DNA from: an uncultured Clostridia bacterium | Lineage (GTDB): Bacteria > Bacillota > Clostridia > TANB77 > CAG-508 | Length of the DNA: 58,601 nt | Reading direction: 5' to 3' | Assembly: GCA_944391785.1 (NCBI GenBank) | Contig: CALXUX010000084.1 | Location: 1 to 58,601, forward strand | Shown here: positions 21,800-51,587 of the stretch, piece by piece | Layout of the letters: every line of letters starts with the position of its first letter | How positions within the stretch are numbered: the first letter of the stretch is position 1 | Made by a program: the position numbers and the translations under genes | Notes under the pieces: model-generated | Databases searched by the model: none | Seen by the model: the letters and a program-made list of their open reading frames with translations, nothing else | What the model was told of the DNA's origin: nothing

Positions 21800-21870
21800 C
21801 GTTATGGTTCATAGCCTATAATAATCTTTAGGGCTTCTCTACAATTTTTATAACTGTAAATTGTAATATA
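21800..21870. repeat. Partial copy (right-end motif only) of the palindrome-element family
   Basis: ...CTTTAGGGCTTCTCTACAATTTTTATAACTGTAAATTGTAAT shares GGCTTCTCTACA with 44236-44247 and GCTTCTCTACA with 50921-50931. Confidence 0.5.
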
Positions 21871-37990: not shown

Positions 37991-38030
37991 GGTTAAAATT
38001 TGCGGCTTAAAATAAACCGTGAATTGTAAC
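37991..38030. repeat. Solo copy of the left-flank motif of the palindrome-element family
   Basis: GGTTAAAATTTGCGGCTTAAAATAAACCGTG compares with GTTATAATTTATGGCTTAAAATGGGTCGC (44013) and AATTTGCGGCTA/AATTTACGGCTAAAATGAACCGC (50671/50688). Confidence 0.5.
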
Positions 38031-43429: not shown

Positions 43430-43909
43430 ATGAAAAAGTTTTCAACATATTTACTAGTAATGTTTATGATCCTATTTTGGATATTAAGAATAGTAATAAC
43501 ACTAATGGCACAACTAGGTCAAGACTTTATGGGAGTAGTTCCAATAGATATGACATTTGAAATAGTACTGTTATTTGCATTTTTACTTTGTGTAATATTA
43601 GTTGTAAAAAGAAAAATATTAGGAGCATTATTATACTTAGGCTTACACGCAATATATTTTGGGGGAGATATTACATCTAAAATACAAATGATGGTAAATG
43701 GAGAGACTCTTGGTATGGATCAAATGGGAGATTTATTATTTTCAATTATAGGGATAATATTACCACTTGCCGTTTTAGTAGATTTATTATTAGATAGAGG
43801 AAGAAAAGAACATCCGGTAGATAAAAAAACTGATTGGTTTTATAAAAATGAGCAATTTGATAGGAAGTTGGATGATAGGGCAGATAAGAATAATTATAGA
43901 ACATTGTGA
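43430..43909 (+). CDS. Hypothetical integral membrane protein (about 4 TM helices)
   Basis: 159-aa ORF with RBS GGGGA and hydrophobic helices throughout. Confidence 0.6.
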   Translation: MKKFSTYLLVMFMILFWILRIVITLMAQLGQDFMGVVPIDMTFEIVLLFAFLLCVILVVKRKILGALLYLGLHAIYFGGDITSKIQMMVNGETLGMDQMGDLLFSIIGIILPLAVLVDLLLDRGRKEHPVDKKTDWFYKNEQFDRKLDDRADKNNYRTL

Positions 43910-44012
43910 ACTTTGGGGACGTTCCTTAGAGTTCATGCTTTATGGGGGATTTTGAATTTTGGAAATGTTTATGATGTTTTTTTAGTTGGAGGAAATATTT
44001 GTGTCCGCCTGA

Positions 44013-44281
44013 GTTATAATTTATGGCTTAAAATGGGTCGCCCTCTAAGGCTTTATTTATATAAAATTTATTCCATTCCTCGGCTCAATACGTGATTTAG
44101 CCCTTCTAAATATAAAACAAACGAGCCTCTCGCTACATTCTTCGCGCTTCCTCATTTGTTTTATATTAAGAAGGGCTACAATCACTCCACTCGCATTCGT
44201 CATTGCATAAATTTTATATAAATAAAGCCTTAGAGGGCTTCTCTACATTTAAAAATTACGGCTATGAATAGTAATCCGCAC
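44013..44281. repeat. Palindrome element copy B: conserved left motif, 197-bp nested near-perfect palindrome (44041-44237), conserved right motif GCTTCTCTACA
   Basis: Outer arms 44041-44071 and 44207-44237 are perfectly complementary (31 bp). Inner arms 44098-44125 and 44151-44178 match at 26 of 28 positions. The internal loops and apex are C/T-rich on the + strand. Confidence 0.85.
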
Positions 44282-49099: not shown

Positions 49100-49160
49100 A
49101 ATTTATTTCATTTGCAAATAAATTTAAAAATTAAAACGTAAATTTTTCTATAAAAGAAGT

Positions 49161-49213
49161 TAAGATTAAAACTTTTTGTAAAATAAATTTATTTACAAAA
49201 AGTTTTAATCTTA
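49161..49213. terminator. Long bidirectional terminator hairpin
   Basis: TAAGATTAAAACTTTTTGTAAAATAAA pairs with TTTATTTACAAAAAGTTTTAATCTTA (one bulge). It lies between the convergent glgP and tmcAL genes. Confidence 0.75.
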
Positions 49214-49220
49214 GCTTAAG

Positions 49221-50450
49221 TTATTCTACTATTTTATGTGTAAAATCTAAATTACTCCAAGAATCTTCTTCATAACCTAGAGTATAGATATTGGTTGCAT
49301 AAATATCTTTTTTTAGTAAAATTTTATTATTTTTATTATTTGATATATCAATATATTTTTTAACAGATGTAATTATTTCAAGTTTTGGATTTGCTTTAGA
49401 AATTTCAGAAATTAAAAATTTTCCTTTATTGTTAAATCCCAAAACCCTAACATATGGAACTATTTTTTTTGAAATATCCATATCTTTTTTTGTAATATCC
49501 AAAAGACTGTATAACAGAATTCTTTGTAATCTAGTAGTTGTATATCTTTTACTTTTAACTATATTCAAAAACTCATTTATACTATTACAAGAATTAGCTG
49601 CATTTTTTATAGCATTTTCAAGGCCTTCAGATACATCAGGTAGATTTTGAATTTCTGATAATGACATTTTTCTTAAATTGTAAATTATTATTTTTTCAAA
49701 AGCTGAGATATCTGGAACAACATGTTTTGCTTTTAAATTATTAATTAAAATGCAAAAACTTTCATCAGGAAGTAATTTTCTAAGTATTGGCAGGTTATCA
49801 TTTTTTATTATATTTCTTATTGCAGTACTACTTGCAATATTTCCATCAATCTTATTACTATGATATTCAGATTCAAATCTTTCTATAGGGTATGGTGCAA
49901 TGTTACTATTATATTTTTTTAGAGCTTTAAGATATTCAATGCCTAGGATGTTATTTGGTGATAATAGTATATTAGTATATTTTCTAATATCATTTAAATA
50001 CATCATTAAAGCATTTTGCCTTGCTTTTGGAAAAGAAATTCCTTTTTTTAGTTCATGTTGAAGAATACTTTTATATTCTTTTGGTTCATTATAAAGAACA
50101 GATGCTATTTTATCTAATGCTTCAAAATCTTGGGTTTCGGTTCCAAATGAAAGGTAGTCTATAACTTTCATTGAGTTTAAAATTTTTACTGCACCGTCTG
50201 CAAAATTTTCAGCACTTGAAATTGCATAGACTAAAGGAAGTTCAATAACTAAATCAAACCCATTTTCTAAAGCCATTTTAGCTTTTGACCATTTATCTAT
50301 TATAGATGTATTACCACGTTGAGTAAAATTTCCACTTATAATTGCTACAGAATAATTTGAAAATGTATCTTTTTTTGCTTTTTGCAGATGATATAAGTGA
50401 CCATTATGAAAAGGGTTATATTCAGCAATAATGCCTAGAACTTTGCTCAT
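49221..50450 (-). CDS. tmcAL: tRNA(Met) cytidine acetate ligase (YlbM/UPF0348 nucleotidyltransferase)
   Basis: MSKVLGIIAEYNPFHNGHLYHLQKAK..., 409 aa. Confidence 0.85.
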   Translation of the reverse strand: MSKVLGIIAEYNPFHNGHLYHLQKAKKDTFSNYSVAIISGNFTQRGNTSIIDKWSKAKMALENGFDLVIELPLVYAISSAENFADGAVKILNSMKVIDYLSFGTETQDFEALDKIASVLYNEPKEYKSILQHELKKGISFPKARQNALMMYLNDIRKYTNILLSPNNILGIEYLKALKKYNSNIAPYPIERFESEYHSNKIDGNIASSTAIRNIIKNDNLPILRKLLPDESFCILINNLKAKHVVPDISAFEKIIIYNLRKMSLSEIQNLPDVSEGLENAIKNAANSCNSINEFLNIVKSKRYTTTRLQRILLYSLLDITKKDMDISKKIVPYVRVLGFNNKGKFLISEISKANPKLEIITSVKKYIDISNNKNNKILLKKDIYATNIYTLGYEEDSWSNLDFTHKIVE

Positions 50451-50670
50451 ATTTTGTGCCTCCTTGGAATTTTATATTTTTTGTTTGATAGGAAAAATCG
50501 ACTTTTATCTTGAGCTTCTTGTGTGGATTTTTTTGTATATAATAAGAAAAGTGTCCTTTAAAAAGAACTGAGTAAGTTTTGATTATGTAGCTTTGCTACT
50601 TTTTTTATGGAAATAGTATATCATAAAATATTGAATTTAGATAGTATTTTTATTTAAAATGATTGGTTAT

Positions 50671-50978
50671 AATTTGCGGCTAGTTACAATTTACGGCTAA
50701 AATGAACCGCGTCAAGTGGAGATTATATAAATAATTTTAAAATATAAATGGCTCCTTGCATAACATAAGAACTTCTAAGTAAAATTTTTGGCACCCTTTC
50801 TGCATAATTTTCTCGGGCGAAAATTTGCGAACTATTTCCAAAAATTTTACCTAAGAAGTTCTAATGTTATTCCAGTCACACATTTATATTTTAAAATTAT
50901 TTATATAATCTCCACTTGACGCTTCTCTACAAATTGGTATGAGTTGTGATTTGTAGCTATGGCTAAAATTAATCGCAC
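50671..50978. repeat. Palindrome element copy C: duplicated left motif, 214-bp nested near-perfect palindrome (50709-50922), GCTTCTCTACA, then a repeat of the left motif
   Basis: Outer arms 50709-50750 and 50881-50922 are perfectly complementary (42 bp). Inner arms 50760-50791 and 50838-50870 have one bulge and one mismatch. ACGGCTAAAATGAACCGC (50693) matches ATGGCTAAAATTAATCGC (50959) at 15 of 18 positions. Confidence 0.85.
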
Positions 50979-51070
50979 TAAGTGAAAGTAATATAAATAG
51001 CTGATTTTTAGTAAAATAATATATTATTTACTTGTTATTTTTATTCAATATTGATATAATAAACCAAATA

Positions 51071-51146
51071 ATGAAAGGAGAAAAAGATATTAATATAATA
51101 TCAAAAAAATGAAAGGAGAAAAAGATATTAATATAATATCAAGAAA
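51071..51146 (+). repeat. Two 38-bp tandem copies echoing the rnhA 5' end, each a 13-codon mini-ORF
   Basis: ATGAAAGGAGAAAAAGATATTAATATAATATCAA(A/G)AAA occurs twice. The ATGs at 51071, 51109 and 51147 are linked by ATGA stop/start overlaps. Confidence 0.9.
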
Positions 51147-51587
51147 ATGAAAATGGAAAAAATTATTATATATACAGATGGAGCATGTTCAGGAAACCCA
51201 GGTCCAGGAGGGTGGGGAGTAATTTTAATGTATAAAGAAAACAAAAAAGAAATATCTGGAGGAAAAAAAAATACTACAAATAACGAAATGGAACTTACTG
51301 CTGCACTTATGGGATTAAAACAACTTAAATATCCATGTGAAGTAGAATTATATAGTGACAGTGCCTATTTAGTAAACGGATTTGAAAAAGGCTGGATATA
51401 TAACTGGCAAAGAAATAACTGGAAAACAGCAAGCAAAGAGCCAGTAAAAAACAAAGAAATTTGGGAAGAAATTTATAAATTAACAAAACTTCACAAAGTA
51501 AAATTTATAAAAGTAAAAGGTCATAGTGATAATGAATATAATAATAGGTGTGACGAGTTAGCAAGGCTTGCAATTAATGAATTATAA
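51147..51587 (+). CDS. rnhA: Ribonuclease HI
   Basis: [22 protein letters not shown]...NNEMELTA...SDSAYL...[16 protein letters not shown]. Confidence 0.9.

Follow-up and report, generated by a model that had tools for sequence, protein, structure and literature searches.

Element C, the long nested palindrome within positions 50671-50978 of the window (the whole stretch of 58,601 nucleotides that was analysed), is most likely a non-autonomous transposable element (MITE) built of nested layers. The host genome is a short-read MAG of an uncultured gut Clostridia bacterium (1.53 Mb, 27% GC, 118 contigs). On this reading, C, element B and the copies at 21801 and 37992 belong to one MITE family and are neither recombination sites nor RNA genes.

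The palindrome of C is real and far beyond chance. Its arms (50709-50750 and 50881-50922) are 42 nt each and 100% complementary, forming a perfect inverted repeat, and inside them lie a further, imperfect stem and a small apex hairpin, AATTTTC-TCGGGC-GAAAATT, as the first-pass annotation of this DNA had described. The fold has a z score of about −17: as RNA, positions 50700-50935 reach −99 kcal/mol, compared with −30 ± 4 kcal/mol for shuffled sequences (z = −17.5; 0 of 200 shuffles as good), and as single-stranded DNA, positions 50683-50957 reach −74 kcal/mol (z = −16.3). The sole ORF in C is a 43-aa TTG frame that is not conserved.

The ends of the element are 15-nt terminal inverted repeats, which lie outside the palindrome and give C a full extent of 275 bp (50683-50957; Table 1). 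The terminal repeat of the family is GTTACAATTYACGGC, both ends of B, C and the minimal forms being GTTACAATTYACRGC, and the pair can be written as GTTACAATTCAC...GTGAATTGTAAC. Aligned copies and a scan with the left motif show that every family copy opens with GTTACRATTYAYGGC and closes with its reverse complement. The flanks reported to be common to B and C were recovered as AATTTAYGGCTWAAAAT on the left and TTCTCTACA on the right, the latter containing GTAG on the opposite strand, and the partial copies suspected near 21800 and 37991 turned out to be minimal members of the family. The stems of B and C, described earlier as unrelated, are not wholly so: a TTATTTATATAAA-like tract occurs in both, and CGGCTCMWTRCR and CCARTCAC are common to the two inner loops. 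C consists of three layers: a shell with terminal repeats and an 8-bp duplication, a shell hairpin with a stem that varies from copy to copy, and a 162-nt inner module. The module is built on a 17-bp stem of its own; it also has covarying stems and two asymmetric internal loops that are conserved, and its apex hairpin is variable. Read from end to end, a shell runs from the first terminal repeat through a linker, the hairpin, TWCTCTACA and another linker to the second terminal repeat.

Table 1. Coordinates of element C, of its insertion site and of related elements in the window.
Feature	Position	Strand	Basis
Left-end remnant GTTATAATTTGCGGCTA of an older family member, split by C	50666-50682	+	Fits terminal-repeat consensus; resumes at 50958
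Target-site duplication of C (8 bp), left copy TGCGGCTA	50675-50682	.	6/8 vs 50958-50965
Left terminal inverted repeat GTTACAATTTACGGC	50683-50697	+	Motif also bounds B and minimal elements
Conserved 5′ linker TAAAATGAACC	50698-50708	+	Kept in alignment of copies
Shell hairpin, left arm GCGTCAAGTGGAGATTATATAAATAA	50709-50734	+	Own complement at 50897-50922
Inner module, 162 nt	50735-50896	+	92-97.5% identity among 7 copies; homologues genus-wide
Genus-wide core motif: GGCACCCTTTC, apex hairpin, GAACTATTTCC	50790-50839	+	Pattern search of genus genomes
Shell hairpin, right arm	50897-50922	+	Perfect complement of 50709-50734
Conserved 3′ linker TTCTCTACA	50923-50931	+	Kept in B, C, minimal forms and other species
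Right terminal inverted repeat GTTGTGATTTGTAGC, degenerate	50943-50957	-	10/15 vs left repeat; 12/15 vs family consensus
Target-site duplication of C (8 bp), right copy TATGGCTA	50958-50965	.	6/8 vs left copy
Continuation of the older element: linker, left hairpin arm, decayed right arm	50958-51036	+	76% to left end of C over 42 nt
Element B	44013-44275	+	Shell family as C; inner module related but different
Minimal member, shell only	21801-21867	+	Perfect 8-bp duplication ATATTTTC on both sides
Minimal 39-bp member, two terminal repeats only	37992-38030	+	Terminal-repeat match

The family is small, non-coding and multi-copy, as is typical of MITEs. BLAST searches of the host genome recovered about 13 copies of C (full or contig-truncated, 85-97% identity) and about 12 copies of B; because many copies sit at contig ends, the true copy number is uncertain. 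The copies of C occur one at a time in ordinary intergenic regions, on at least 12 different contigs. Some shells are without long cargo (37992-38030, 21801-21867, C12:47186 and C61:1137), and others hold only a short hairpin and no inner module (C81:16052, C114:31175 and C13:11066).

Family members are also bounded by target-site duplications, and these are 8 bp long. Among 13 elements of the genome in which each terminal repeat is at most 2 mismatches from the consensus, the 8-mers immediately outside the two ends match at a mean of 6.3 of 8 positions. Shuffled pairing of the same 8-mers gives 2.74 ± 0.46, and none of 5,000 shuffles reaches the observed mean. Five pairs are perfect (AACATAAT, AATTTAAA, TCCAGAAT, ATATTTTC and GGAACGTC). 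The C copy itself has two weak points, a right terminal repeat that matches at 10/15 positions and a duplication that matches at 6/8. A duplication of fixed length, here 8 bp, together with terminal inverted repeats is the footprint of DDE-type transposition.

The surroundings of C show that its target was the left end of an older element of its own family. When C and one 8-mer are removed in silico, the remaining sequence reads GGTTATAATT[TGCGGCTA]AAATTAATCGCACTAAGTGAAAGTAATATAAATAGC, which is the left end of another family member; the implied empty site is ...GGTTATAATTTGCGGCTA joined directly to AAATTAATCGC..., with a single 8-mer. The continuation to the right of C resembles what we call type-2 shells. 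This insertion explains the doubled AATTTGCGGCTA...AATTTACGGCTA on the left of C and the "direct repeat" ATGGCTAAAATTAATCGC on its right. The first-pass annotation had noticed a direct copy of the left motif on the right side, and this copy exists (TATGGCTAAAATTAATCGC, 16/19 matching positions). However, it is not a flanking repeat that belongs to C, being made up instead of the 8-bp duplication and the continuation of the interrupted older member. The same insertion accounts for the apparent promoter TTGCGG-18-TAAAAT, which is a peculiarity of this junction and is absent from the other copies.

C lies between two divergent genes, an HIGH_NTase1-family gene (49221-50450, - strand) and rnhA (from 51147), both identified with Pfam. 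Synteny of this gene pair extends to 76 related species; the spacer between the two genes is 74-304 bp long in them (mostly 80-150 bp), compared with 696 bp in the host genome. None of the syntenic loci in the 76 species carries C or B, and the insertion is thus specific to the lineage. All orthologous loci of the C region come from uncultured gut Clostridia MAGs. Over the whole region, C included, the host genome agrees at 99.5% identity with an independent contig of its species. None of the other same-species contigs shows an empty site: one carries C, one ends inside repeats and one is probably chimeric. In the last of these, an ENA scaffold (ERZ28614211 scaffold_112215; L136), the left flank of another C copy (as at C61:42017) is joined through the element to the right flank of the window copy; probably the assembly was misjoined at the repeat, the alternative being that two copies truly recombined. 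In relatives the promoter region is about 100 bp long, and C makes it roughly five times longer, so that it may affect the expression of rnhA and of its divergent neighbor.

Two other features of this region were observed. Upstream of the rnhA start, at 51066-51168, a 38-nt unit (AATGAAAGGAGAAAAAGATATTAATATAATATCA) with a ribosome-binding site and an ATG occurs twice in tandem, and the real rnhA start is a third, diverged copy of the unit, so that the rnhA leader is duplicated. Between the convergent genes for glycogen phosphorylase and HIGH_NTase1, positions 49121-49253 form an imperfect palindrome with 62-nt arms (73% complementary), which is probably a bidirectional terminator region.

The footprint suggests that the shell would have been inserted by a DDE-type transposase (cut-and-paste or replicative) supplied in trans and making 8-bp staggered cuts. 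An autonomous insertion sequence with the same terminal repeats was found neither in the host genome nor in five relatives (G001, G014, G035, G174 and G197) nor at about 160 public loci, an absence limited by the fragmentation of these assemblies. A search of relatives and public contigs for terminal-repeat pairs at the size of an insertion sequence yielded two candidates, both carrying ordinary genes. Three insertion sequence families were rejected as parents: ISL3 is present at contig ends but its ends (GGTTCTTTGTCAAG...) differ, IS1595 is absent from the genome, and IS256 occurs in one contig with ends that do not match.

Could C instead be moved by a transposase of another class? We considered a REP/REPIN-type element that a HUH transposase of the Y1 class (RAYT or IS200-like) would mobilize in single-stranded form by recognizing the hairpin and a nearby GTAG tag, and regard this as very improbable. 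A RAYT-like Y1 protein is indeed encoded in the genome (it scores 74 bits against NCBIfam REP_Tyr_transpos, below the cut-off of 80, and matches Pfam Y1_Tnp); its gene (C112:13741-14415; L001 1465-2139) adjoins a spoVT/abrB-like gene. Conserved unpaired loops with covarying stems would fit recognition by structure. Two conserved motifs near the stem, CTCTACA on its 3′ side (which reads GTAG on the opposite strand) and CCGYC on its 5′ side, recall tagged REPs; REPs tagged with GTAG and CGTC have been described (PMC3733652). A REP tag adjoins a palindrome of 20-40 bp directly; in the C family CTCTACA is 4 nt away from the stem, and the palindromes exceed 200 bp. However, the RAYT gene is bracketed by inverted copies of the REP TTGCCAMAAGGGACGGAGC..TGGCAA, and this gene and each of its 20 homologues in relatives lie between inverted GGGAC-type REPs (e.g., TTGCCAAAAGGGACGGAGCAAAATGGCAA), with no C-type element flanking any of them. 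RAYT and the core are also not distributed together: the element occurs without RAYT in G027 (100% complete) and in G035, and many RAYT-positive genomes are without the element. In addition, C-family hairpins are 5 to 10 times longer than REPs. Finally, Y1 transposases, which act on IS200/IS605 and REP hairpins, make no target-site duplication, whereas the C family has duplications of 8 bp. The GGGAC REPs and RAYT form a classical REPIN-RAYT system that is separate from the C family, and RAYT as the mobilizer of C is rejected on its flanks and distribution. The REP core, GGGACGGAGC, has 93 hits in the host genome, often in tandem arrays and in head-to-head doublets that end contigs.

The first-pass annotation had likened C to recombination or transposition substrates, since its ends are conserved while its palindromic core varies. 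The general idea of a mobile substrate survives, but the candidates named for it (attC-like sites, a retron, IS200/IS605 and REP hairpins) do not. An attC site is rejected because such sites lie in cassette arrays next to an intI integrase, whereas copies of C are scattered, without arrays, on at least 12 contigs. A retron msr/msd is rejected because no reverse transcriptase gene is adjacent (the neighbors of C are glycogen phosphorylase, HIGH_NTase1, RNase H and SpoIIM-type genes) and because the element is multi-copy with duplications. An IS200/IS605-derived PATE would have no terminal repeats and would insert 3′ of a fixed tetra- or pentanucleotide, whereas the C family has terminal repeats and variable 8-bp duplications.

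Other repeats in these genomes were recorded alongside. A second REP family, TGAACTTTAGGGACGTTCCTTAAAGTTCA, occurs in the window (43907-43945) and in many contigs (e.g., C13:13666, C21:827 and C94:2713), and a RAYT homologue in the relative G031 (L118) is flanked by exactly this REP. Two members of the MITE family sit inserted at the centers of REPs of this second family (C86, with the duplication GGAACGTC, and C61:42017). At C81:20019-20135 of the host genome (L002 1480-1700), an IS200-type TnpA gene is truncated to its first ~40 residues, and hairpins typical of an IS200 right end come after it; this stretch ends in ...ATGAGTTGTAAC, resembling the right terminal repeat of the MITE family. 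The conserved cores of all three repeat families contain CGG (CACGGCT, AACGGCTCC and GGGACGGAGC).

Within the MITE family, the layers differ in how far they have diverged. Seven complete copies of the inner module are 92-97.5% identical to each other, compared with 49-94% for the shell halves and only 54-75% between C-type and type-2 shells. Despite this divergence between copies, every shell hairpin is perfectly complementary within itself, and the inner module sits each time at its exact apex. Because the modules are uniform and the shells diverged, we infer that the module spread among shells that had already diverged.

The inner module also has homologues in other species of the genus, where they are multi-copy, 65-77% identical and able to form the same long hairpin fold. 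Their unpaired stretches are conserved (GGCTCCTTNCAT or TTCGGYTCAATAC, GGCACCCTTTC, CGAACATTTTCC and TTCCARTCACA) and their stems are variable. Of 338 genomes of the genus, 83 contain the pattern GGCACCCTTTC-N10-40-GAACWNTTTCC, with 1-42 copies that lie in either orientation, and its distribution is patchy; the reversed control pattern has 0 hits in the same 338 genomes. Public matches listed for the core are all from uncultured gut Clostridia or "Clostridium sp. CAG" assemblies, and a HiFi-assembled relative (OZ006978) has no copy. The apex hairpin of 11-33 nt is not a multiple of 3 in length and therefore not coding; with the frame shifts in the right motif, this rejects a small ORF or type I toxin at the apex. 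A sigma-54-like TGGCAC-N5-TTGC at the apex was also discarded, since it is not conserved in other species.

The stems of the inner module change in a compensatory manner. In an alignment of 36 copies, 17 of the 24 pairs in two inner stems show compensatory changes and 92% of cells are paired, with all shuffle and slide controls lower. Wobble pairs are not favored (about 9 G-U compared with 17 A-C cells of 863, neither strand being enriched). The compensatory changes with few G-U pairs fit Watson-Crick copying better than RNA wobble tolerance; they speak for strict complementarity held in DNA and against a structured RNA.

These data bear on a further alternative, which the first-pass annotation had raised as an sRNA gene: that C encodes, in multiple copies, a structured non-coding RNA (an sRNA or long hairpin RNA), with selection on the RNA making its stems covary. 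The RNA fold of C is very stable, and conserved internal loops with compensatory stem changes across species are what such a gene would be expected to show. Yet G-U is not enriched over A-C on either strand, and no Rfam family matches even at E ≤ 10, the searches at gathering scores and at E ≤ 10 returning only chance hits to miRNA models far below gathering scores. A conserved promoter and terminator are absent as well: the proposed promoter is the copy-specific junction described above, promoter-like sites in 50450-51150 are in no excess over shuffles (5 compared with 5.8 ± 2.7), and no terminator was found 3′ of the hairpin. The sRNA reading of C is thus unsupported. The distribution of the core (just 83 of 338 congeners, 0-42 copies, both orientations), the terminal repeats and duplications that bound the element, and arm sequences that vary from locus to locus also speak against an RNA gene, which we consider very unlikely; RNA-level selection does not explain the near-perfect arms. 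That the palindrome is an assembly artefact, a false product of a hairpin walk in a de Bruijn graph, is conceivable for a short-read MAG of 118 contigs with many copies at contig ends, but is exceedingly improbable, because the palindromes are internal to long contigs and run into unique, different genes on both sides, their arms contain occasional mismatches, the architecture recurs in SPAdes, MEGAHIT and IDBA MAGs and in older CAG scaffolds, and the independent same-species contig agrees over the whole region.

In addition to divergence between shells, the arms around the core vary from locus to locus in other genomes. In some of them, each core copy has near-perfect, locus-specific arms of up to 125-170 bp. 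The public MAG ABMPRH_46_2 (G092) has about 42 core copies, and at every copy examined the arms are different (30-125 nt, 0-3 mismatches). Two of these arms were tested with BLAST and have no other occurrence in the genome than their mutual mirror image. In 392 kb of this MAG there are 33 long inverted repeats, at least 21 of which hold the exact core motif centrally and about 6 more of which have a core-sized spacer. The palindromes occupy tandem, convergent and divergent spacers, and several span from stop codon to stop codon; 5 of 17 scored spacers, including 4 of 5 convergent ones, are filled to within 30 nt of both flanking genes. At one convergent gene pair, the spacer is 33-116 bp in seven relatives that have no such palindrome there, compared with 323 bp in ABMPRH_46_2 and 415 bp in G001, where a different core variant lies inside three mirrored REP units. 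Across 72 copies from about 30 public MAGs, the whole palindrome measures 178-472 bp (median 218), and 40 arms have no similar arm in the set.

At one locus of ABMPRH_46_2 (G092:C40; L157 2428-2973), a Mini-III RNase-like gene has no stop before the element. Its frame enters the arm for ~145 nt and crosses a GGGAC REP containing CGG, adding ~45 residues to the predicted protein.

Because long unique palindromes that are unoccupied are rare, pre-existing targets are an unlikely source of the arms. We infer that the arms were made or extended after insertion, one arm being copied onto the other. In published work, template switching during replication makes the arms of inverted repeats uniform, lengthens them and can flip the spacer between them (PMC8604942, PMC13100816, PMC8794818). 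In the host genome, neither the 13 copies of C nor the roughly 8 full-length copies of B include a flipped core. We tentatively raise a bolder possibility, to which we give less than even credence: the core of ~125-160 nt may be a separate mobile unit that settles at hairpin tips and copies its flanks in mirror image, which would yield locus-specific palindromes that grow up to 380-470 bp until they meet the neighboring genes. If so, the core would be a selfish element that "palindromizes" intergenic DNA. Loss of SbcCD could bear on how such palindromes are tolerated: neither SbcC (PF13558) nor SbcD (TIGR00619) was found in the 98%-complete host genome. However, a divergent SbcD-like gene, below the family cut-off, is present in 32 of 36 congeners, and no correlation was seen.

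We propose that C arose in steps. The shell, inserted as outlined above, landed in the short region of divergent promoters between HIGH_NTase1 and rnhA, where it split an older family member at its left end. The inner module would have spread later, at the apex of the shell hairpin, among shells already diverged. The near-perfect arms would be kept complementary at the level of DNA, likely by replication template switching between arms. As an object, C is of an ordinary kind and is now well resolved, and the interesting residue is the behavior of the arms across the family. The repeats of this family break MAG assemblies of a large uncultured gut lineage and can lead to chimeric contigs. They are also a natural system in which to study the origin of long perfect palindromes in bacteria, the upkeep of their perfection and their tolerance by the cell.

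We found no paper on this repeat family in the literature; general reviews on bacterial MITEs are available (PMC3184786, PMC10969869). Correia elements (CREE/NEMIS) of Neisseria, ERIC/IRU of enterobacteria and bcr1 of the Bacillus cereus group are likewise small, gene-less, multi-copy and intergenic, and share with the C family terminal inverted repeats, target-site duplications and long hairpins. For several of these elements, too, we know of no parent transposase. They differ from the C family in the duplication, which is 8 bp in the C family compared with TA in Correia and TTTAT in bcr1. Unlike them, the C family is layered, its inner module spreading separately from the shell and the shell hairpin; its middle is conserved across the genus, and its arms vary between copies yet stay perfectly complementary.

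REP/REPIN elements, reportedly linked to RAYT transposases by Bertels and Rainey, resemble the C family in being hairpin-forming intergenic repeats with compensatory evolution of the arms and a tag-like motif with GTAG near the stem. In contrast to them, the C family has terminal repeats and 8-bp duplications and flanks no RAYT gene, and its members are about 215-275 bp long, compared with 20-40 bp for REPs and about 100 bp for REPINs. Homogenization by template switching, as known from quasipalindromes, fits the perfect Watson-Crick arms, the two-sided changes and the outward growth (PMC8794818, PMC8604942, PMC13100816). Template switching has been described for short inverted repeats and RNA hairpins, whereas the arms on which it would act here are 40-170 bp long and surround a conserved mobile core.
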